Positions 95 to 51,752 of a DNA stretch of 53,239 nucleotides are shown here, piece after piece. Source of the stretch: Solirubrobacterales bacterium (lineage in GTDB: Bacteria; Actinomycetota; Thermoleophilia; Solirubrobacterales; 70-9); NCBI GenBank assembly GCA_035712505.1, contig DASTAR010000024.1, positions 1 to 53,239 of the forward strand, written 5' to 3'. The notes beneath the pieces are model-generated. The model worked only from the letters and a program-made list of their open reading frames with translations. It did not search any database and was not told the DNA's origin. Every line of letters starts with the position of its first letter. Within the stretch, counting starts at the first letter, position 1. Position numbers and translations under genes: made by a program.

Positions 95-285
95 ACTCGG
101 GGCGTACATATCGGTCGGTGGTCAAGGGAAGTCCGGTGTGAGTCCGGCGTGGTCCCGCCACTGTGACCGGGTGGAGGAGTTCGCGGGCGCCCTTGGGGCG
201 TCAGCCACTGGAGGCGACACCGAGCCTCCGGGAAGGCGCGTCCTCCCTGATCCCGGAAGCCAGGAGACCTGTCCCCGGCCCAGCC
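95..285 (+). promoter_or_regulatory. Cobalamin (AdoCbl) riboswitch; boundaries approximate
   Basis: Core read directly: ggtcaagggaagtccggtgtgagtccggcgtggtcccgccactgtgacc (120-168), B12-box-like gccactgg (204-211), gggaaggc (230-237), and the 3' signature ccggaagccaggagacctg (253-271). It lies just 5' of a transporter operon. Confidence 0.9.
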
Positions 286-315
286 AAATCAACCCTCGAG
301 GAAAGGGTGGCGTAA

Positions 316-3006: not shown

Positions 3007-4687
3007 GCTGGCGATCAGGCGGGGGGCGGCGCCAGCGCTTGTGGTAGGGGGTCTGAGTTACTCGTATCCGCAGGGACTGCAGGGCGAGGACGCGGCCCCG
3101 AAGCGGGCGCTGGAGGGCGTCTCGCTCGAGGTGGCGCCGGGGGAGTTCGTGCTCCTCGCCGGCCGCTCCGCCTCTGGGAAGTCGACGCTGCTGAAAGCCG
3201 CCTGCGGGCTGGTGCCCCACTTTCACGGGGGCGAGGTCGAAGGCGAGGTGCGCGTAGCCGGGATCGACGCGCTCGGGGCCGGCCCGGCCGATCTCGCCGC
3301 CGCCGTCGGATACCTCGCCCAGGATCCGGAGACGCAGGTCGTCTCGACCACCGTGGCCGCCGAGATCGAGCTGCCGCTGGAGATGCGCGGCGAAGCGCCT
3401 GCCGCCCGCGCCCGCGCCGTCGAGGAGGTGGCGCTGGCGCTGGCGATCCCGCACCTTCTGGACCGCGCCGTCGACACCCTCTCCGGAGGGGAGCTGCAGC
3501 GCGTCGCCCTCGCCGCCGCCCTCGTCACCCGCCCGCGCCTGATCCTCCTCGACGAGCCGACCTCCCAGCTCGACCCGGTCGCGGGCGACGAGCTGATCTG
3601 GCTGCTGCGGCGCCTCAACGAGGAGTGGGGGGTGGCGGTCCTGCTCGCCGAACACCGGCTGGAGCGGTGCCTGGCGGCGGCGGACCGGGTGGTGGCGATG
3701 GAGAAGGGCGGCGTTGCCTTTGACGGGTCGCCCGCGGATTTTTTGGCGTGGTCGCATGAGAGCGATGCTGCCCTCTCGACCCCCGCCGCGCGGCTCTTCT
3801 CGCTCGCCGAGATAGAGCCGCTGCCTGTGGGCGTCCGCGATGCACGACAGACGCTGCGGAGGACGGGGATCGCGCACCCTCCGACTCGCTTGGTGAGGAG
3901 GATGCGCGATCCCCGTCCTGCCGACGCGGTCTTGAAGTCGAACGACCTTTGGGTCGAGCTCGACCGCGGGGACGAGCAGCGCGACGTGCTGCGCGGCATC
4001 GACCTCGAGGTGAGGCCGGGCGAACGAGTCGCCTTGATGGGACGTAACGGCGCGGGTAAGTCGACGCTGTTGCGCGCCGCAGCGGGGTTGCATGAGCCGG
4101 TCGCGGGGAAGATCGAGGCCGAGTCGATCGCTCTCCTCACCCAGAATCCGAGTGACTACCTCGTCCGCGAGCGGGCCGGTGATGAGCTGCCCGGGGAGGA
4201 GGGGATGGCGGCGTTGCGAATGGTCGGCCTCGAGCACGCGGTCGACGCCGATCCACGCGACCTCTCGGGCGGCGAGCGACAGCGCTTGGCGCTGGCGATC
4301 GCGTTGGCGGGCCGAATGAGCGGCGAGCAGCTCCCGAGCCTCGTCGCTCTCGACGAGCCCACCCGTGGGATGGACCGCGCGCGCAAGGAGGAACTCGTCG
4401 CGCTGATTGGCGCCCTTGCGGAGGATGTCGACTTAGTTACCCATGAGGTAACTAAGTCGACAGGCCCCGCAGCGGTCGTCGTCGCAACCCATGACGTCGA
4501 GTTCGCCGCCGCCTGCGCCGAGCGCGTGGTCCTCTTGGGCGAAGGCGTCGTCATCGCCGACGGGCCGATGGAGGAGATCCTCTCGGGCGGCTGGTACTTC
4601 GCGACCGAGGTCGCGCGGGTGCTCGACCTGCCGGGGGTCGTCACGCCCGAGCAGGGCGCGGCTGTCCTGAAGGAGGCGCTGGGATGA
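2999..4687 (+). CDS. Fused double ABC ATPase of an ECF transporter (EcfA1-EcfA2/CbiO-like)
   Basis: Two ABC cassettes. Walker A GRSASGKST with signature LSGGELQR; Walker A GRNGAGKST with signature LSGGERQR. GTG start preceded by gaaggagg (2982-2989). Confidence 0.9.
   Translation: MSKLAIRRGAAPALVVGGLSYSYPQGLQGEDAAPKRALEGVSLEVAPGEFVLLAGRSASGKSTLLKAACGLVPHFHGGEVEGEVRVAGIDALGAGPADLAAAVGYLAQDPETQVVSTTVAAEIELPLEMRGEAPAARARAVEEVALALAIPHLLDRAVDTLSGGELQRVALAAALVTRPRLILLDEPTSQLDPVAGDELIWLLRRLNEEWGVAVLLAEHRLERCLAAADRVVAMEKGGVAFDGSPADFLAWSHESDAALSTPAARLFSLAEIEPLPVGVRDARQTLRRTGIAHPPTRLVRRMRDPRPADAVLKSNDLWVELDRGDEQRDVLRGIDLEVRPGERVALMGRNGAGKSTLLRAAAGLHEPVAGKIEAESIALLTQNPSDYLVRERAGDELPGEEGMAALRMVGLEHAVDADPRDLSGGERQRLALAIALAGRMSGEQLPSLVALDEPTRGMDRARKEELVALIGALAEDVDLVTHEVTKSTGPAAVVVATHDVEFAAACAERVVLLGEGVVIADGPMEEILSGGWYFATEVARVLDLPGVVTPEQGAAVLKEALG
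4427..4461. repeat. Unique 35-bp perfect palindrome (15-bp arms, loop catga) inside the ATPase CDS
   Basis: gtcgacttagttacc (4427-4441) and ggtaactaagtcgac (4447-4461) are exact reverse complements. AT-richer than its surroundings. Translated in frame as VDLVTHEVTKST. Confidence 0.95.
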
Positions 4688-6723
4688 GCTGGCAGCTGAC
4701 GAGCTTCGTCATCCTCGGCCTCGTCCTCCTCGGCGGCTTCGCCTGGTACGAGCGCTCGCGGCCGCCGTCCCAGGTGGTCGCCCTGGTGGCGGCCCTCGCG
4801 GCGCTGGCGATCGCCGGCCGCATCGCCTTCGCCGCCTTCCCCAACGTCAAGCCGACCACCGACATCGTCGTCTTCGCCGGTTACGCCCTCGGCGGCGCCC
4901 CGGGCTTCGCCGTCGGCGCCCTCGCCGCGCTGGTCTCCAACTTCTGGTTCGGCCAGGGACCGTGGACGCCGTGGCAGATGGCGGGATGGGGCCTCTGCGG
5001 GATCGTCGGGGCGCTGCTCGCCCTCGGCACGCGCAACGCGGGCCGCTTCGGCCTCGCCGCCATCTGCGGGTTTGCAGCCGTTTTGTACGGGGCTCTGCTG
5101 AACTTCTCTTTGATGGCGACCTACGGGGCAGACCTGTCGTGGAAGCAGTTCTGGCTGCTCGAGGGGCGCGCGGTGCCGTTCGAAGTCGCCCACTTCACCG
5201 GCAACGTCGTCTTCGCGCTGGTCGCCGGGCCGGCGATGGTGCGGATGCTCGTCCGCTTCCGGGAGCGTTTCGAATGGCAGCGGTGCTCCCCGACGGAGAC
5301 TCCGAGGGACCCCGGTCGCGGCTTCGGCGGCGCCCTGCGCAGCGGCGGCGTCGCGGCGCTGCTCCTCGTCCTCCTTGCCGGGGTCTCCGCGCCGACCGCC
5401 CACGCGGACGCGGCCGGAGAAGCCGCTTCCGTCGGTCGCGCCCTGCACTGGCTCGAAGCGCAGCAGCGCCCGAGCGGCGGCTTCGCCGCCGACAGCAGCC
5501 GCGAACCCGGCGCCGAAATCACCTCCTGGGTGATGCTGGCCCTCGCCGCCGCGGGACGTAATCCCCTCGACGTGGCAAAGGACGGCAAGACGCCCGTCGA
5601 TTTCCTCCGCTCCCACGCGGACGAAATCAAGGACGCCGGCGACGTCGCCCGCACGATCCTCGCCCTGGAGGTCGCCGGAGCCGACCCCCGCCAGTTCGCC
5701 GGCGAAAACCTCGTCGCCCGCCTGCTCGCGCAGCGGCGGCAGGACGGCTCCTACCAGGGCTGGCCGGCGACCAGCGCCTACGCGGTGCTGGCGCTGCGGG
5801 CGGCGGGTGCGAACGACGCGACTGCGGCGACCGTCGACTGGCTGCGCAAGGTGCAGGGCAAGGACGGCGGCTGGGGGAACGAACCCGGCGACCCCAGCAC
5901 CTCCGAGATCACCGGCGCCGCCCTGCAGGTGCTGGCGCCGGGGTCGGAGGCCAGCGAACGCGCGCTCGGCTACCTGCGCGAGGCGAAGCGGCGCAACGGC
6001 GGCTTCGCGCCCGGCAACAACCTCGAAGCCAACGCCCAGGCGACTGCCTGGGCCTGCGAGGGGCTGCTGGCGGCAGGCAAGGACCCGGCGGACTTCGGCT
6101 CGGGCAAGAGCTCGCTCGCCTACCTGCGCGACCTGCAGGCCAGCGACGGCCACTTCCTCCAGGCGCCGGGGCAGGAAGCCTCCCCGGTCTGGGTGACCGC
6201 CGACGTCCTCGTCCCCCTCGCCGGCGCCCACCTGCCGATCTCGGCGCCGCCGCGCCAGCCAAAACCGTCGAGTAACCCGGACAGCCACGGCACCCCCTCC
6301 GCGTCCAGCGGGGGGGTCCTGCCGTCGAGCGTCCCGCCGTCGAGCGTCCCGCCGTCGAGCGTTCCGTCCACCGGCACCCCGCCGCCGAGCTCCGGCCAGA
6401 CCCCGCTGGAATTCCTCGAACAGGTCGAAGAAGGTGGAAGCGGCGCGACGGGAGGTTCGGCGCCCTCCGGCGACGGAGGGCAGGGCGTGAAGCCCCCGGG
6501 CATAGCTGGCGGAGGTCAGCTCCCCCAGGAAGCCATCACCCCAGCTCCCGCCCCGGAAACCCCGCTGCCGAGCGAGGCATCCGGAGAACCGGCCTCCGAA
6601 CCGACCGAAGGGTCGAGCAGCACCGCCGGCGCGATCGTCCTCGGTCTCCTCGTCGGCTGCGTCCTCTTCGGCCTCGGCCTGGCGGCCCGCAGGGGCTGGA
6701 TGCACTGGCGCTACGGCCTGTAA
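4684..6723 (+). CDS. Fusion protein: ECF S-component-like membrane domain + prenyltransferase/terpene-cyclase-repeat (alpha/alpha toroid) domain + Pro/Ser linker + C-terminal TM anchor
   Basis: N-terminal ~200 aa has 5-6 TM helices (NVKPTTDIVVFAGYALG motif). The middle has repeated QxxDGG(F/W) motifs (QQRPSGGF, QRRQDGSY, QGKDGGWG, KRRNGGF, QASDGHF). The C-terminus has a TM helix (AIVLGLLVGCVLFGLGLAA). ATGA overlap with the ATPase gene. Confidence 0.75.
   Translation: MSWQLTSFVILGLVLLGGFAWYERSRPPSQVVALVAALAALAIAGRIAFAAFPNVKPTTDIVVFAGYALGGAPGFAVGALAALVSNFWFGQGPWTPWQMAGWGLCGIVGALLALGTRNAGRFGLAAICGFAAVLYGALLNFSLMATYGADLSWKQFWLLEGRAVPFEVAHFTGNVVFALVAGPAMVRMLVRFRERFEWQRCSPTETPRDPGRGFGGALRSGGVAALLLVLLAGVSAPTAHADAAGEAASVGRALHWLEAQQRPSGGFAADSSREPGAEITSWVMLALAAAGRNPLDVAKDGKTPVDFLRSHADEIKDAGDVARTILALEVAGADPRQFAGENLVARLLAQRRQDGSYQGWPATSAYAVLALRAAGANDATAATVDWLRKVQGKDGGWGNEPGDPSTSEITGAALQVLAPGSEASERALGYLREAKRRNGGFAPGNNLEANAQATAWACEGLLAAGKDPADFGSGKSSLAYLRDLQASDGHFLQAPGQEASPVWVTADVLVPLAGAHLPISAPPRQPKPSSNPDSHGTPSASSGGVLPSSVPPSSVPPSSVPSTGTPPPSSGQTPLEFLEQVEEGGSGATGGSAPSGDGGQGVKPPGIAGGGQLPQEAITPAPAPETPLPSEASGEPASEPTEGSSSTAGAIVLGLLVGCVLFGLGLAARRGWMHWRYGL
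6321..6365 (+). repeat. 3 x 15-bp tandem repeat encoding (L/V)PSSV units
   Basis: gccgtcgagcgtccc occurs twice, then gccgtcgagcgttcc. Encodes PSSVPPSSVPPSSVP in the linker of CDS 4684..6723. Confidence 0.9.
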
Positions 6724-39459: not shown

Positions 39460-40982
39460 TGGCGCTGACCGAGACGCCGATGCAGGCCGAAAAGGCGCGG
39501 ACGATCTTCGAGAAGTCGAAGCCGGGCCGTCGGGCGGCGGCGCTGCCGGATATCGAAGTCCCCGAGAAGTCGCTGGCCGAGCTGATCCCCGAGAACCTGC
39601 TGCGCGCCGAGCCGCCGCGGCTGCCGGAGATCGCCGAGCCGGAGATCGTCCGCCACTACAACCGGCTCTCGCGGCGCAACTTCGACCTCGACACCGGCTT
39701 CTATCCGCTCGGCTCCTGCACGATGAAGCACAACCCGCGCCTCAACGAGCGGGTCGCGGCGCTGCCCGGTCACTCCCGCCTGCACCCGGCGCAGGATCCG
39801 CGTCGCGCCCAGGGCGCGCTGGAGTTGATGTGGCTGCTGCAGGAGAGCCTCAGCGAGATCTGCGGGCTGCCGCACGTCAGCCTGCAGCCGAGTGCAGGCT
39901 CCCATGGCGAGCTCGCCGGCCTGCTGCTGACCCGCGCCTACCACGCCGATCGCGGCGAAGAGCGGAGCAAGGTGCTGGCGCCGGACACCTCGCACGGGAC
40001 CAACCCGGCCTCGGTGACGATGGCCGGCTACAGCGTGGTCAAGGTCGCGACCGACGAGCGCGGCGGCGTCGAGATGGCCGACCTGCGGGCGAAGCTCGCC
40101 GAGAACGAGGGCGAGGTCGCCTGCCTGATGCTGACCAACCCGAACACGCTCGGCGTCTTCGACGAGAACATCGCCGAAATCGCCTCGCTGATCCACGAGG
40201 CCGGCGGCACCCTCTACTACGACGGCGCCAACCTCAACGCGGTAATGGGCCACTCGCGGCCCGGCGACATGGGCTTCGACATCGTCCACGTCAACCTCCA
40301 CAAGTCGTTCAGCCAGCCTCACGGCGGCGGCGGTCCAGGCGCCGGTCCGATCGCCGTCTCCGACCGAATCGAGCCGTATCTGCCGAAGCCGCAGGTGGTC
40401 CGCCGCGCGGCGAGGAACGGCCATGGCCCGAGCTTCGACCTCGACTTCGAGCGGCCGAAGTCGATCGGTCGCCTGCGCGGGTTCCAGGGCAACTTCGGCG
40501 TCTTCGTCCGCTCCTACGCCTACATCCACAGCCTCGGCGGCGACGGCCTCGCCGAGGCCAGCGAGACGGCGGTCCTCAACGCCAACTACCTGAAGGCGCT
40601 GCTGGCCAGGGGTCGCGCCGGCGAGCGCCTGCCGATCGCCTTCGACCGGCATTGCATGCACGAGTTCGTGCTCTCCGGCAAGCCGATGAAGCGCGATCTC
40701 GGCCTGGCCACCCTCGACCTGGCCAAGCGCCTCCTCGACTTCGGCTTCCACCCGCCGACCGTCTACTTCCCGCTCTTGGTCGACGAGGCCCTGATGGTCG
40801 AGCCGACCGAGACCGAGACCAAGGAGTCGCTTGACGCCTTCGCCGAAGCGATAGAGAAGATCCTCACCGAGGCCGAGGACAACCCCGAGGTGGCGAAGAG
40901 CGCCCCGTACACCACGCCGGTCCGCCGCCTCGACGAGGTCAAGGCGACCCGGCAGCCGGTCGTGCGGCAGGCGCTTGGGTAG
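39459..40982 (+). CDS. gcvPB: Glycine dehydrogenase (decarboxylating) subunit 2
   Basis: PLGSCTMKHNP, and the PLP-lysine context NLHKSFSQPHGGGGPG. Its ATG overlaps the gcvPA TGA. Confidence 0.95.
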   Translation: MALTETPMQAEKARTIFEKSKPGRRAAALPDIEVPEKSLAELIPENLLRAEPPRLPEIAEPEIVRHYNRLSRRNFDLDTGFYPLGSCTMKHNPRLNERVAALPGHSRLHPAQDPRRAQGALELMWLLQESLSEICGLPHVSLQPSAGSHGELAGLLLTRAYHADRGEERSKVLAPDTSHGTNPASVTMAGYSVVKVATDERGGVEMADLRAKLAENEGEVACLMLTNPNTLGVFDENIAEIASLIHEAGGTLYYDGANLNAVMGHSRPGDMGFDIVHVNLHKSFSQPHGGGGPGAGPIAVSDRIEPYLPKPQVVRRAARNGHGPSFDLDFERPKSIGRLRGFQGNFGVFVRSYAYIHSLGGDGLAEASETAVLNANYLKALLARGRAGERLPIAFDRHCMHEFVLSGKPMKRDLGLATLDLAKRLLDFGFHPPTVYFPLLVDEALMVEPTETETKESLDAFAEAIEKILTEAEDNPEVAKSAPYTTPVRRLDEVKATRQPVVRQALG

Positions 40983-41062
40983 GGGGCCGGGAGACCGTCC
41001 CCAGACACCACTCGCCAATGGCTCGTGGTTGAGTGTCTGGGGACGGTCTTCCGGCCCCCTAC
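40979..41062. repeat. Family E palindrome H1 (28-bp arms with one mismatch); probable bidirectional terminator
   Basis: agggggccgggagaccgtccccagacac (40981-41008) pairs with gtgtctggggacggtcttccggccccct (41033-41060). The TAG of gcvPB and the CTA (TAG on the minus strand) of the ligD-pol gene lie inside the stem. Confidence 0.9.
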
Positions 41063-42892: not shown

Positions 42893-43003
42893 TGCGTGCG
42901 TTCCTTACCTGGGGAAGTCCTCTTACCCGGATTCTTTCAACCAAACGCTGCCGCAGGCCATAGAGGTGACCAGACGGGAGCGCTCTTGCGCAGCGCCGAA
43001 GTC

Positions 43004-43042
43004 GTGGTTCCTTTGTCCGGCCATGCCGGACAAAGGAACCAC
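43004..43042. repeat. Family A palindromic element, copy A3 (perfect 17-bp arms, loop ccatg)
   Basis: gtggttcctttgtccgg (43004-43020) and ccggacaaaggaaccac (43026-43042). Ends 3 nt before the fetA-like ATG (43046). Confidence 0.95.
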
Positions 43043-43045
43043 GCG

Positions 43046-46131: not shown

Positions 46132-46267
46132 GGGCCGGGATGGGTGTCACTCGATGCGGCCCCTCGGCCGGGATGGGTGCCCACCAAAGCGCTCGATAGC
46201 CGGGACCGGTGACCCCTCGAGCCGGCGGATACTCAAAACGGCGACCTAATTGAGGGGTTGGCGAAAC
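46132..46267. repeat. Left inverted repeat of the cassette
   Basis: Three blocks: gggccgggatgggtgtcactcga (46132-46154), a 22-nt core agccgggaccggtgacccctcg (46198-46219), and cctaattgaggggttggcgaaac (46245-46267). A second gggatgggtg copy lies at 46166-46184. Confidence 0.85.
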
Positions 46268-46387
46268 GATTGGCGAAAGTCTTGATCTGCATCGGTAGTC
46301 CCTCCTAGGTTCGCCCGGTCCTAATCAACAAGTGGCCGGGCGACTGCGCAAACAGCCCCCGGCCGTGGCACAGGAGGGTGAACTCCC

Positions 46388-46657
46388 ATGCACCACAAGG
46401 CTACGTTAGGCCCGGCTGAAGAAGACCACGTATACGAGCAGGCGGTCCTGACCCACGTCCTCTTTTCGCAGCCGACCATCCTCCGGCTCTGCGATCTCAA
46501 GCGCGAAGTCAGGCCGGGAATAGGCAACTCAGACCCCGCAGACGCCGTTGAAAGGGCGGTGCGGGAACTCGTCAAGGTCAACCTGCTCCACCGCCACGGC
46601 GATTGCGTCCTGCCGACCTCTACGGCGGTCTACGTCTCGGAGATGGACCTCGGATGA
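46388..46657 (+). CDS. Hypothetical 89-aa protein, translationally coupled to the XRE gene
   Basis: aggagggtg precedes ATG 46388. Its stop overlaps the next start (ATGA at 46654-46657). No family recognised. Confidence 0.45.
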   Translation: MHHKATLGPAEEDHVYEQAVLTHVLFSQPTILRLCDLKREVRPGIGNSDPADAVERAVRELVKVNLLHRHGDCVLPTSTAVYVSEMDLG

Positions 46658-46875
46658 GTCCCGAGCGGATCAAAGCGCAGTTCGGCCGCAACCTTGCCGA
46701 GGCGCGCGGTTGGGCGGGACTGACCCAGGCCGAGCTTGCCGAGCAGACCTCGGTCAGGCGGATCGAGATCGGGCGTTACGAGACCGGGATGCGTTGCCCG
46801 CCTCTGGATCGGGTCGTCAGGCTCGCAGAGGTCTTGGGCTTGCAGGTCCGCGACCTGCTGTTTGAAATCGAGTAG
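46654..46875 (+). CDS. XRE-family helix-turn-helix regulator (73 aa)
   Basis: GRNLAEARGWAGLTQAELAEQTSVRRIEIGRYETGMRCPPLDRVVRLAEVLG is a canonical Cro/C1 HTH. Confidence 0.8.
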   Translation: MSPERIKAQFGRNLAEARGWAGLTQAELAEQTSVRRIEIGRYETGMRCPPLDRVVRLAEVLGLQVRDLLFEIE

Positions 46876-47983
46876 AGCGGGCGCGCGAAAGCGCGCAGGC
46901 CAGCTTGGTCAACACCGTCAGGTCGGTGTGGAGTCGGACGCGCTCAAGGCCACGGACTCGCAGGGGCTTCAACCCCCATTCGTGCTTGAGCCGTCCGAAC
47001 TCCCGCTCGACCGCCACCCGCTTGCGGTAGGCGCTGTTCCAGCGCTTCGACTTGTAGGGGATCAGCGGGTGCAGGCGGTCGGCCTTGATCCAGGTCGAGG
47101 CCGGTTTGCACTTCCCCTTCGGGCAACGCCACTTCGAGGCGCCGCGCTTTCGGTCTGACCCGGCGAACTTCCAAGTGCCGTGCTCGCACTCCGGCGGCAG
47201 GTGGTCGCCGCGCTTGACGCCGGTCGTCTGTTTGAGGGGAATGATCGGCAGGCAGTCGCGCTCGGCGCATTCCTCATGAATCGGACCGGAGTCATAGCCC
47301 TTGTCCATCGCTGCCGTGTCAGCCATGCACCCGCGCCGCCTGGCTTCGTCGATCAGCATCGCGGCGAACCGGCCTTCGTTCTCCCTCGCGCCTTCGACCC
47401 TCCACGCAACCGGAAGACCCGTCGCCACGCAGGCGGCAAGGTGCAGGCGGTAGCCGTAGAACGAACCGCCCTTGCGGGTGGAGATAGCCGAGCGGCGCCC
47501 CCAGCTTGCGTCGGGGTCGGAGAAGCGCCGTGGCACCTTGACCTCGCCGATGTCGCGCTGGCCGTTCGCGTAGGCCGGCATGTCGCTCGCGTCGATGGCG
47601 AGGTCCGTGCCGTAGGTCGGCAGCTGCGCCTTCAGCCCTTCGACCACGGAGTCGATGCAGCGCTCGACTTTCTCGCCGTTGTCGCGCAGCTTGTCGGCGA
47701 AGCGGTACGCGGCCCACTTGCTCGGCGGTTCGCCCTCGCAGCCAAGGACGCGCTGCAAGCGCCAGTGGTCGGCGACCAGGGCGACCACCCGCGTCCACGT
47801 CGGCAGGGCGTAGAGGGACTTCGCCAGCGCCAGCCCGATCATCGTCCGGATCGGGTAGCCGGGACGCCCCGTCCAGCGGGTAGCTTCAAGCTCCCCGATC
47901 AGGCGCCCAATCTCGGGCGAATCGAGGAGTTGTTCAAGCGCGGCAGTGGATGCCGTGCCCCCTGCTAAGTTCGGCGGTGCCAA
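46817..47983 (-). CDS. IS5/IS4-superfamily DDE transposase (DUF772 N-domain + DDE_Tnp_1), possibly 3'-truncated IS
   Basis: N-terminus GRPGYPIRTMIGLALAKSLYALPTWTRVV (DUF772-like). C-terminal Y-x2-R-x3-E-x6-K signature (YRKRVAVEREFGRLK). The ORF tail reads 59 nt into the XRE gene. No clear terminal IRs found. Confidence 0.8.
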   Translation of the reverse strand: MAPPNLAGGTASTAALEQLLDSPEIGRLIGELEATRWTGRPGYPIRTMIGLALAKSLYALPTWTRVVALVADHWRLQRVLGCEGEPPSKWAAYRFADKLRDNGEKVERCIDSVVEGLKAQLPTYGTDLAIDASDMPAYANGQRDIGEVKVPRRFSDPDASWGRRSAISTRKGGSFYGYRLHLAACVATGLPVAWRVEGARENEGRFAAMLIDEARRRGCMADTAAMDKGYDSGPIHEECAERDCLPIIPLKQTTGVKRGDHLPPECEHGTWKFAGSDRKRGASKWRCPKGKCKPASTWIKADRLHPLIPYKSKRWNSAYRKRVAVEREFGRLKHEWGLKPLRVRGLERVRLHTDLTVLTKLACALSRARSTRFQTAGRGPASPRPLRA

Positions 47984-48114
47984 TCGAGCTATACCTCGTT
48001 TGGTCTGCCCCTCGGACGCGCCAACGTCGCGGGGGGCTTCTTCTTGAGTCTTGCCCGCTCAGGCTATACGTCGGATCGGACGGAACACCGCTCTGGAATG
48101 CGGAAAAACTGGGA

Positions 48115-48381
48115 TTAGGGGCGCTTCAAAATCTCATGGTTGCAGTGATTGCGAAGCACGATGATGCCGTCCTCCCAATGCCACGTAACCCGGTTCTTCA
48201 TGTCCACGTAAGCCTCAAAGACCTTTGGTTTCTTCGTTCCGCGCACGACGTGCGTCTGAAGCGACGGGTGCCGAGGGTTTTCGCCGAGGCGCTGAACAGT
48301 CTCAGCGATTGCTGCCTGAAGGTCAGGTTCCTTCTTCTGGAAACGCTTCTTGAACGAAGCGCCATACCGAAGGGGAGGCAT
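48115..48381 (-). CDS. RelE/ParE-superfamily toxin
   Basis: 88 aa. FKKRFQKK...KVFEAYVDMKNRVTWHWEDGIIVLRNHCNH fits the RelE/ParE/YafQ-type fold pattern. Starts immediately after the stop of the upstream small gene. Confidence 0.65.
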   Translation of the reverse strand: MPPLRYGASFKKRFQKKEPDLQAAIAETVQRLGENPRHPSLQTHVVRGTKKPKVFEAYVDMKNRVTWHWEDGIIVLRNHCNHEILKRP

Positions 48382-48645
48382 TCAGTCGCTGAACAGGTCC
48401 CGAACCGCGTCTGCCGGATCGTTAAAGGTCCGGGCGTGTCCGGCCTTCAAATCGGCTAGGGACGCCGCCTCATCACGCTGCCACTGGCTCGACCAGTAGT
48501 AGACCTGATCAGCGGGGATGAAGAGGGGAACGTGCCGGTTGGCCATCGCCTTATTGGTCGCCATATGCGACCCGCCCAGCAGACGGTTGCGAGAGCTACG
48601 CCCCGACAGAATCGCTTCTTGGCTGGTGGCTACCTTGGTCGTCAC
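48382..48645 (-). CDS. Putative antitoxin
   Basis: Assigned by position directly upstream of and abutting the toxin gene, and by a C-terminal motif (YYWSSQWQRDEAASLADLKAGHARTF) resembling tails of AbrB/MazE-type antitoxins. The start may be the internal ATG (MATNKAM). Confidence 0.45.
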   Translation of the reverse strand: MTTKVATSQEAILSGRSSRNRLLGGSHMATNKAMANRHVPLFIPADQVYYWSSQWQRDEAASLADLKAGHARTFNDPADAVRDLFSD

Positions 48646-48651
48646 AGTTTC

Positions 48652-48942
48652 TCAGTCCTCATCGGTATCGCCACGGATAGTTTCGAGCACCCGGATGAGA
48701 TCGTCAAGACCCTGGGGCGAGAGCGCGATACGGGCGATTGGTTTTACAGGGATGTAGCCGCGCGTCTTAAGTCGCTCAAAATCGTCCTCGGTTGAAATTT
48801 CCGGAGGTAGCTGGGAGCCAAGGTTGACGAAGTATGCGTTCGGGCCAGCAATAGCGACGAACGCATTCGCGAACTGCACGGGCAACTCGTCAGCGCCGAT
48901 CCAGGCCTGATCCAGTTCGATCTCTTCAGGAGCTTTGGGCAT
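48652..48942 (-). CDS. DUF3467-like small protein
   Basis: FANAFVAIAGPNAYFVNLGSQLPP...KPIARIALSPQGLDDLIRVLETI follows the DUF3467 pattern as I recall it. First gene of the three-gene minus-strand operon. Confidence 0.4.
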   Translation of the reverse strand: MPKAPEEIELDQAWIGADELPVQFANAFVAIAGPNAYFVNLGSQLPPEISTEDDFERLKTRGYIPVKPIARIALSPQGLDDLIRVLETIRGDTDED

Positions 48943-49142
48943 TGCAGTGTCTACTCGGCAGGAAAGGACTCAGGCGTTAGGCCCAGAGCCAGTCAGGCAG
49001 GATACGAAAGTCCAGGCGCCGGCGCTGCGAAAAGTTTTGAGCGGGATCAGTTGTGCTCGCATCTTGGGGTAGCTTTCGCCCTAAGGCGAGGTATCTGGAA
49101 TTCAGCTAGCGCCGCAACCCCGCATGGCTACTGGGCCTGCGA

Positions 49143-49240
49143 GTTTCGCCAATCCCTCAATTAGGCCGTCGTTTGTCGGAGCGAGGGGTCACCGGTCCCG
49201 GCTTCCACCCCCCGAGTGAGGGGACGCCCATCCCGGCCCC
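49143..49240. repeat. Right inverted repeat of the cassette
   Basis: gtttcgccaatccctcaattagg (49143-49165; 22/23 complementary to 46245-46267). cgaggggtcaccggtcccggct (49182-49203; exact complement of 46198-46219). cccgagtgaggggacgcccatcccggcccc (49211-49240). Confidence 0.85.
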
Positions 49241-49263
49241 CTCACCACTAGGCTCCGTCCCTC

Positions 49264-51684: not shown

Positions 51685-51752
51685 GGAGGGTCCGGGGAGG
51701 GTCCTCCAGACAACAGCTGGGGAGCGTCTGGAGGACCCTCCCCGGACCCTCC
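51685..51752. repeat. Family E-like palindrome H2 (perfect 27-bp arms, 14-nt loop)
   Basis: ggagggtccggggagggtcctccagac (51685-51711) is the exact reverse complement of gtctggaggaccctccccggaccctcc (51726-51752). No U-run. Ends 5 nt before the rluB GTG. Confidence 0.9.

Follow-up and report, generated by a model that had tools for sequence, protein, structure and literature searches.

In contig DASTAR010000024.1 of a Solirubrobacterales bacterium (assembly GCA_035712505.1), a cassette of about 3.1 kb lies between an MFS transporter gene and trpS and is bordered by imperfect inverted repeats of 100-135 bp. The question raised by this locus is whether these repeats belong to the cassette or to the host. 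We analysed the 53,239 nucleotides of the contig, hereafter the window, together with related loci (numbered with the prefix L). Taking all the evidence into account, positions 46252-49158 are best explained as a 2.9-kb cargo-carrying insertion sequence located in the apex of a conserved host hairpin, the long repeats being mostly the split halves of this hairpin; we give this explanation a probability of about 0.9. A previous sequence-only reading had set the limits of the element at 46132-49240, which proved too wide, and had left two possibilities, a transposon with long terminal inverted repeats (TIRs) or mobile DNA integrated in the loop of a pre-existing palindrome.

The flanks of the cassette are inverted repeats in three blocks, as had been claimed. 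The core pair (46198-46219 and 49182-49203) is an exact 22-mer, which reaches 27 nt at 93% when extended; in the inner pair (46245-46267 and 49143-49165) there is one mismatch, and the pairing can be followed over 32 nt at 91% (46236-46267 and 49143-49174); and the outer pair is best placed at 46132-46148 and 49223-49239 (17 nt, 94%), with a second copy in the left flank at 46166-46182. Units of about 33 nt starting with (G/A)GCCGGGAnnGGTG are present three times in the left flank and twice in the right one. The expectation of such inverted-repeat patterns in shuffled sequence was 0.00-0.11, so all three blocks go beyond chance. The lower GC content of the interior was also borne out, with 63.2% for 46252-49158 versus 70.5% in the rest of the window, where segments of the same size had a standard deviation of 2.0 and a minimum of 66.1%; inside the cassette, the cargo part had 58.4% and the transposase gene 67.6%. 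The same can be said of the likeness of the outer arm to the arm of H1, another hairpin of the window, for which there was one match within 3 edits when 0.017 were expected. H1 (40979-41062) is 84 nt long, with arms GTAGGGGGCCGGGAGACCGTCCCC, and resembles the outer arm unit adjoining trpS; by this likeness, the arms of the MFS-trpS hairpin may be part of a wider GC-rich palindrome family in the source genome. At the outer limits, 46131/49241, where a target-site duplication had been suspected, there was none (GCTCGTC versus TCACCAC), and a perfect AATT duplication was found further inside the flanks. Thus the inner block straddles the junction, being formed by 16 nt of TIR, the duplication and the apex, while the core and outer blocks are hairpin arms.

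Evidence for this explanation comes from the sites without the element. A 20-mer from the core arm was scanned against a collection with one genome per species and gave 20 matches. About 15 of them corresponded to Solirubrobacterales genome records, all in the MFS-trpS spacer, and the remaining 5 were in unrelated taxa and looked like chance. Two exact copies of the 20-mer, in inverted orientation and separated by 44-53 nt, are found in 6 of the 15 (L002, L003, L008, L012, L016, and L017); these have an uninterrupted hairpin, and so do L004, L011, L018, and L020, whose second arm differs slightly from the 20-mer. These 10 related genomes are examples of the junction carrying only a palindrome that the sequence-only reading had suggested looking for. 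The empty site is one compact hairpin of about 95 nt with CTAATTAG at the apex (context ...GGCGGCCTAATTAGGCCGCC...). Empty sites read CCTAATTAGG and the filled site of the window reads CCTAATT-element-AATTAGG, its two junctions being CCTAATT-GAGGGGTTGGCGAAAC and GTTTCGCCAATCCCTC-AATTAGG. When 46252-49162 was removed from the window, the remaining DNA could be aligned without gaps to the intact hairpins, the left half aligning in this way with those of L002, L008, L011, L012, L016, L017, L018, and L020. As this deletion restores the insertion-free hairpin, the inserted unit is 46252-49158, of 2,907 bp. The innermost 16 bp on each side are, as we read the junctions, the only part of the repeats that belongs to the element. 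The insertion site is polymorphic among close relatives, considering that L011, with an identity of 90-94% to the window over trpS and the downstream DNA, is empty and L023, 90% identical in trpS, is filled; the right side of L023 has two units, as in the window. The right arm of the hairpin ends about 10 nt from a conserved TAGGCT located just upstream of the trpS ATG. This hexamer, part of a motif common to all the MFS-trpS loci, may serve trpS as the -10 element of a near-leaderless promoter; the insertion has altered neither the hexamer nor the trpS start region.

The family to which the element belongs was examined through its transposase. Homologues of this protein number more than 3,800; the best of them are 70-87% identical over the full length and come mostly from soil metagenomes and Solirubrobacterales. 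Among 80 metagenomic loci encoding transposase relatives, we found about 35 complete elements of 2.4-4.4 kb with the same 16-bp TIR, each with a perfect 4-bp duplication and in unrelated flanks, and all of them far longer than the transposase gene. Their layout is a TIR, about 100 nt of conserved end, the cargo slot, a leader of about 125 nt, the transposase gene, a convergent pair of winged-helix and XRE genes, and the other TIR. Of 31 complete elements, 26 have this convergent gene pair. Between the two conserved segments, the cargo-side end and the leader, the slot is variable, conservation collapsing after the first ~100 nt of the element. Exact-protein look-ups of the trpS and transposase products of the window returned no record, and in a plasmid collection there were only distant transposase relatives, 25-30% identical; the annotated IS1182 transposases on plasmids are at this same distance. 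One homologue was listed in 67 index blocks, which corresponded to one locus in many samples and not to many genomic copies; it gives, therefore, no evidence of recent bursts. Two other observations were made in the family. In L095, two non-coding elements of 161 bp (2565-2725 and 4784-4944) have the family 16-bp TIRs and CTAG duplications, in opposite orientations and 2 kb apart; by their ends, they are genuine MITE-type derivatives (miniature inverted-repeat transposable elements). In L053 (4793-4828) a complete element and its CTAG duplication are immediately followed by a second TIR (...CCCTC CTAG GAGGGATTGACGAAAC...), a sequence that we interpret as two family members back to back with one shared CTAG.

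Considering these data, the first possibility of the sequence-only reading, a transposon of 3.1 kb that truly ends in the 100-135-bp inverted repeats, with the palindromes that it had called Family E as MITE-like miniatures, is refuted in practice and we regard it as very improbable. It is true that the flanks are long inverted repeats, that the outer arm resembles the H1 arm beyond chance, and that the hairpin variants loosely track the transposase subclades (L027, L031, and L040 all have GGTCTAATTAGACC). However, about 10 genomes without the element keep the two arms, united in one hairpin, at this locus; the duplication is inside and not outside the arms; and such arms are missing from about 25 relatives that share the 16-bp TIRs and are located in unrelated, nonpalindromic sites. 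In addition, the element is found in both orientations inside the MFS-trpS hairpin, which has a fixed polarity, and the real miniatures are those of 161 bp with 16-bp TIRs. A Tn7- or Mu-like organization, with the GCCGGGAnnGGTG units as multiple transposase-binding sites, was also considered and dropped, as the empty sites show that these units are hairpin arms. The second possibility, mobile DNA in the loop of a pre-existing palindrome, was essentially correct, the uninterrupted palindrome being found at the same junction in relatives.

The sequence of events would be as follows. Before the insertion, the MFS-trpS spacer would contain one very stable GC-rich hairpin, with a core of about 95 nt, extra tandem arm units in this lineage, and CTAATTAG in the apex. 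An autonomous insertion sequence of 2,907 bp would then move into the centre of the apex: the DDE transposase would recognize the 16-bp TIRs, make a 4-bp staggered cut at AATT and join the element, and the repair of the gaps would generate the AATT duplication. This cut-and-paste step is proposed from the anatomy of the element and by analogy with the IS5 and IS1182 families. The insertion would separate the halves of the hairpin by 2.9 kb, and for this reason the flanks look like imperfect inverted repeats of 100-135 bp.

The features of the locus are collected in Table 1. The two TIRs, GAGGGGTTGGCGAAAC and GAGGGATTGGCGAAAC, have 16 bp and match in 15 of 16 positions. The transposase exceeded the cutoffs of the Pfam domains DUF772 (PF05598), DDE_Tnp_1 (PF01609), and DDE_Tnp_1_6 (PF13751). 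Its best NCBIfam model was that of IS1182 (NF033551), with 122.4 bits versus a cutoff of 270 and covering only the C-terminal half of the model, and all the IS5 models were below cutoff as well (the best, 51 bits versus 140). The likely start of the XRE gene is the ATG at 46654, which overlaps the upstream stop (ATGA), and not the TTG at 46603 given by the program that listed the open reading frames (ORFs). For the 89-aa protein, the AlphaFold model had a predicted local distance difference test score (pLDDT) of 83 and its top Foldseek matches were nearly all winged-helix proteins (IclR, MarR, PadR, and cullin WHB), although these matches are weak (TM score 0.6-0.66, E 0.008-0.1); on the basis of the model, it is probably a DNA-binding protein. 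The 89-, 87-, and 96-aa ORFs gave no Pfam, NCBIfam, or PADLOC match, and PDB sequence searches with the 88- and 89-aa proteins gave no match either, only the fold comparison being informative. Between the convergent XRE and transposase genes there is, at 46881-46896, a small GCGCGC-GAAA-GCGCGC hairpin. The listed transposase ORF extends about 60 nt beyond it, into the XRE gene of the opposite strand, and its C-terminal tail may therefore be nonnative.

Table 1. Coordinates of the insertion sequence, its genes and the split hairpin in the window.
Feature	Position	Strand	Remarks
Left (MFS-side) half of split hairpin	46132..46251	.	Arm units of ~33 nt at 46132, 46166, and 46198; then bulge; apical stem to apex
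Conserved unpaired bulge GGATACTCAAAA	46227-46238	.	Within left hairpin half
Target-site duplication AATT, left copy	46248..46251	.	Centre of apex CTAATTAG
TIR, regulator side, GAGGGGTTGGCGAAAC	46252..46267	+	Same 16-mer bounds transposase relatives in >30 loci
Second TTGGCGAAA copy after regulator-side TIR	46270-46278		Follows the TIR
89-aa winged-helix-fold protein	46388..46657	+	Constant module; in 26/31 complete elements
XRE-family helix-turn-helix protein	46654..46875	+	HTH_31 and HTH_3, E about 1e-12; in 26/31 elements
DDE transposase, 388 aa, IS5/IS1182-like	46817..47983	-	DDE_Tnp_1, DUF772, DDE_Tnp_1_6
Conserved ~125 nt upstream of transposase gene	47984..48110	-	Presumed transposase promoter and leader; inner edge of cargo slot; block-wise conservation over 30 elements
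Cargo gene 3, 88-aa RelE/YoeB/YafQ-fold toxin	48115..48381	-	Predicted fold
Cargo gene 2, ORF of at most 87 aa, putative antitoxin	48382..48645	-	By position only; its stop abuts the toxin start (TGAATG)
Cargo gene 1, 96-aa protein	48652..48942	-	66%-identical homologue in L038
Conserved subterminal region, cargo-side end	49059..49142	.	Outer edge of cargo slot
TIR, cargo side (reverse complement GAGGGATTGGCGAAAC)	49143..49158	-	15/16 match to other TIR
Target-site duplication AATT, right copy	49159..49162	.	Perfect copy
Right (trpS-side) half of split hairpin	49163..49240	.	Apical stem; core arm 49182-49203; second arm unit 49220-49240 (H1-like outer block)
TAGGCT in conserved motif CCCTCAMTAGGCTCC	49249..49254	+	9 nt before trpS ATG (49264); motif in all MFS-trpS loci

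The cargo slot of the window copy (about 48110-49058) contains a three-gene operon that, among the elements compared, is common only to L038, where a homologue of the ORF of cargo gene 2 is found in the same position. The 88-aa protein had no match to sequence families (Pfam and NCBIfam). Its predicted structure (pLDDT 84) gave as the top 30 Foldseek matches in the PDB only toxins of the RelE superfamily (RelE, YoeB, YafQ, and HigB), with TM scores up to 0.77, and the residues H38, E56, D60, R64, and H82 are invariant. The 96-aa protein had no Pfam match at E up to 10. The name "DUF3467-like" given to it in the sequence-only reading is without Pfam support, and there is no similarity to the DUF3467 protein carried by a related element; from the gene content described there, the analysis confirmed the DDE transposase, the XRE protein, and a protein with the RelE fold, whereas the antitoxin is a candidate by its position only. 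The lower GC content of the cargo suggests that it is foreign. We infer that a toxin-antitoxin-like cargo of this type would help the retention of the element.

The cargo of the relatives is of other kinds. In L028, L031, L042, and L084 it is an N6/N4 methyltransferase fused to a Mrr-type nuclease domain, as seen in Pfam and PADLOC scans of the L042 copy; in L092 it is a protein of about 330 aa matching over its full length the PADLOC candidate defence family PDC-S42 (E 4e-60), and the proteins of about 330 aa in L030 and L044 visibly resemble it. Proteins P63C, DUF3800, DUF6731, and DUF433 were also found. The copies in L021 and L023 occupy the same hairpin and their transposase genes are 90-94% identical to that of the window, and still, in the comparison with 47984-49158 of the window, their cargo is unrelated. 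Their winged-helix/XRE segment is 72-77% identical, far more diverged than the transposase gene. Both facts suggest modular exchange inside the element.

It could be argued from these differences in cargo between elements with transposase genes 90-94% identical, and from the distinctly lower GC content of the cargo with respect to the transposase gene, that an insertion sequence, a toxin-antitoxin cassette, and the XRE pair arrived separately in a recombination-prone palindrome and made the interior a mosaic. This is hardly credible, taking into account that there is no second TIR pair around the transposase gene, that the XRE pair is constant in the family, that the cargo is always within the same conserved end and leader segments, and that it is the whole 2.4-4.4-kb unit that bears the target duplication in about 35 loci. 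As judged from this arrangement, the interior is a single element and not a mosaic of independent insertions.

A key aspect is the choice of the target. When the transposases were placed in a neighbour-joining tree, the tetranucleotide that is duplicated depended on the clade: there are several CTAG clades, one ATAT clade, and one AATT clade that includes the window copy. Most relatives duplicate CTAG, CTAA, or TTAG, and the window copy and its clade AATT. The tree contains 13 AATT-clade loci, 8 of them in a hairpin apex (the window, L021, L023, L025/26, L027, L031/32, and L040), 3 elsewhere (L029, L037, and L033), and 2 without a readable end; L070 and L071, outside the tree, are also inserted in the apex, which makes 10 hairpin-apex loci in all. 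The apex insertions are distributed in three host loci, namely, the MFS-trpS spacer, a position upstream of an acnA-like gene, and the space between a sulfatase and an acyl-CoA carboxylase gene. In the MFS-trpS spacer the element of the window and that of L027 have opposite orientations, while the bulged half of the hairpin is on the MFS side in both. Opposite orientations in a hairpin of fixed polarity imply independent insertions at one spot. In the 619 kb examined, CTAATTAG was found only at the hairpin apex and AATT at 0.55 per kb; with such a rarity, the target preference extends well beyond AATT. The AATT clade shows a strong extended preference for the CTAATTAG apex, in which the 8-bp palindrome, the extruded structure, or both may act as the cue. 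A palindrome preference of the whole family was also considered and rejected: the sites of the CTAG clades were no more symmetric than control CTAG, AATT, or ATAT sites (mean 5.0 versus 4.5 in the controls; 1 of 29 sites with a score of at least 10, p = 0.24). A cruder measure of the target, composed of minimum free energy and stem span, gave no discrimination.

As regards the hairpin itself, its minimum free energy is -88.6 kcal/mol per 100 nt, and RNAalifold on 15 copies predicted 38 pairs, with compensatory changes in 19. Over these 15 aligned copies there is hardly any variation in the apex or in the 9-nt bulge GATACTCAA, and the inner motif is written here as GGATACTCAAAAYGSCGGYCTAATTAG plus symmetric variants. 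Rfam has no family for it and gave only spurious matches to microRNA precursors, as expected for any long hairpin. It is GC-rich and located at gene 3' ends, there is no T-run after the stem, and a terminator consensus scan does not call it; the joint promoter and terminator consensus scan was, in general, uninformative. Terminators of actinobacteria often have no U-tract. With these characteristics, we read the hairpin as terminator-type or REPIN-like. REP and REPIN repeats are characterized by many copies per genome and by a RAYT transposase associated with them. There is one copy in the window and copies at three host loci among the loci examined. Some species have other variants: in L003 (92-175) the MFS-trpS hairpin is fully symmetric, without the GGATACTCAAAA bulge, and in L009 (about 1400-1460) and L013 (about 3100-3150) only a stem of 10 bp is left of it (AGCCGGGACC...GGTCCCGGCT). 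Some species can, hence, dispense with the inner part of the hairpin.

Several points weigh against the explanation of an insertion sequence homing to a conserved host hairpin, and they concern the element, its genes, the target, and the hairpin. With respect to the element, we infer its transposition from the anatomy seen in the DNA, only one copy is present in the window, and its transposase is below every curated cutoff for insertion sequence families, so that the family placement is by resemblance only. With respect to the genes, the winged-helix and XRE proteins would regulate the transposase or the cargo, and the 87-aa ORF would be, by its position only, a putative antitoxin. With respect to the target, L029 and L037, apparently the same site, use an AATT that is not in a hairpin, and L033 uses AACT; the hairpin is thus not obligatory.

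These three loci bring in another explanation, in which the AATT clade would insert at any AATT and only the insertions in neutral sites, such as the loop of a hairpin, would persist. The intact trpS start region and the CTAG-clade members without palindrome preference agree with it, and the hairpin preference could come in part from the survival of neutral insertions. As an explanation of the whole pattern we consider it unlikely. At about 0.55 AATT per kb, a genome would have on the order of at least 1,000 such sites, many of them intergenic, and in spite of this the 8 hairpin-bound loci are all at the identical position of one rare 8-bp palindrome, the same apex was entered independently in both orientations, and the nonhairpin sites share flank bases with the apex (GGATCT/AACT and GGATCG/AATT versus GGTCT/AATT).

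With respect to the hairpin, its bulge polarity at the acnA-like locus is not the same in L025 as in L040, which shows that the hairpin can vary with respect to the host genes, and it may itself be mobile or invertible; in addition, no unoccupied copy was found in about 400 kb flanking other transposase loci. The difference in polarity and the likeness of the arms to H1 and other palindromes of the window keep alive a reading in which the hairpin is a dispersed, possibly mobile landing pad of REPIN or MITE type and not a terminator bound to its locus. This reading is compatible with the insertion of a cargo-carrying element in a hairpin apex and differs from our explanation on the target only. 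The inner sequence CGGCGGATACTCAAAAYGSCGGYCTAATTAG... is present at the three host loci with outer arms that are related but not identical, L027 and L031, both from one metagenome, have an identical 36-nt inner part, and the bulge is nearly invariant. On the other hand, the 20-mer core matches only the MFS-trpS spacer in each genome, the flanks of the other loci have no bystander copies, position and polarity in the MFS-trpS spacer are conserved across many species, the location at gene 3' ends is terminator-like, and Rfam has no matching family. We consider a dispersed hairpin a real possibility, with chances somewhat below even.

By comparison with known systems, the case closest to the insertion in the MFS-trpS hairpin is IS1272/TnSha1 of staphylococci, of the IS1182 family, an element of about 3 kb with a single transposase and the passenger gene sh-fabI. 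Its insertions are in hairpins, of which several have been confirmed as transcription terminators, and the same hairpin is entered repeatedly and in both orientations; according to its authors, palindromes are the target of some IS1182 members (PMC4923244; PMC5678879). With IS1272 the cut falls in the stem and part of the hairpin is lost, and there is neither a target duplication nor a primary sequence specificity (PMC4923244). The single transposase, the passenger gene, and the repeated insertion in hairpins in both orientations are common to both systems, and IS1182 is the best, although sub-threshold, NCBIfam match of the window transposase. In contrast, the element of the window is located exactly at the apex of a defined 8-bp palindrome site, with nothing lost and a clean AATT duplication, and its transposase is only about 25-30% identical to annotated IS1182 transposases.

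IS5 has about 1.2 kb and contains the transposase gene only; in its group, the 4-bp duplication is typically CTAG/YTAR. The window family, unlike it, has 2.4-4.4 kb, two extra constant genes, and a cargo slot; the clade of the window duplicates AATT, and the IS5 models are below cutoff. The likeness to the IS5 group is in the DDE_Tnp_1 transposase, the 16-bp TIRs beginning with G, and the 4-bp duplication, which in most relatives is CTAG, the typical target duplication and a hallmark of IS5 (PMC10379815). Extragenic palindromic repeats have been described as a specific target of insertion sequences from five families, IS5 included, with IS1397, ISKpn1, IS621, ISPpu9/10, ISRm22, and ISNm1106 as examples (PMC1525189). 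The targets of those are the high-copy repetitive extragenic palindromic (REP) and bacterial interspersed mosaic (BIME) repeats of proteobacteria, whereas the hairpin of the window is apparently low-copy and its host is a high-GC actinobacterium. The element also agrees with the definition of the transporter insertion sequences (tIS) of the ISfinder catalogue, that is, genes unrelated to transposition enclosed with one transposase by short TIRs and one duplication; it differs from tIS in general by the constant DNA-binding pair and by a slot that is exchanged between transposase genes 90-94% identical.

The statement of the sequence-only reading that this is not a described element was too strong, given that insertion sequences that target hairpins and those with passenger genes have both been described (PMC1525189, PMC4923244). 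Hairpin targeting, passenger genes, and CTAG duplication are known processes and the finding is explained by them; the current understanding is not overturned. What looks apparently undescribed is a family that combines a sub-cutoff transposase, a constant regulator-like pair, a cargo slot whose content is exchanged, and a target that switches from clade to clade, with homing to the apex. To our knowledge, a constant small DNA-binding pair together with an exchanging defined slot has no description in an IS5/IS1182-like family, the entries of ISfinder not having been compared. It is tempting, but rather doubtful, to go further and propose an undescribed IS5/IS1182-like family that would transport defence and toxin-antitoxin genes as a miniature shuttle, with a dedicated slot of rapid exchange, a control by two proteins, and one clade homing to the apex of a hairpin repeat as a safe harbour that spares the host genes.

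For annotation, it is worth considering that, when an accessory cassette is bordered by long imperfect inverted repeats, these can be the halves of a split host hairpin and not transposon ends, something that the comparison with empty sites resolves quickly. By the number of transposase homologues, the family is abundant in soil Actinomycetota, and by its combination of sub-threshold transposase, two constant DNA-binding proteins, a slot for RelE-type modules, methyltransferase-nuclease fusions and PDC-S42 proteins, and clade-specific targets, it is a tractable system for the study of target switching by DDE transposases and of the movement of defence genes by very small elements.

Other features were observed in the window. 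At 102-290 (+) there is a cobalamin riboswitch aptamer (RF00174, 72 bits, E 6.5e-16), the only Rfam match of the window above the gathering score. Two positions 41 kb apart, 1580-1620 and 43003-43043, contain one and the same perfect palindrome, CGTGGTTCCTTTGTCCGG(C)...(G)CCGGACAAAGGAACCACG, which is a second, unrelated family of repeated hairpins. A perfect hairpin with a 27-bp stem is located at 51685-51752, downstream of the trpS start by about 2.4 kb; L012 (4876-4987) and L002 (6293-6374) have hairpins in the equivalent place, with the loop motif GACAA...TGGGGAG.GTC in common, and it is, by this comparison, another conserved intergenic hairpin.

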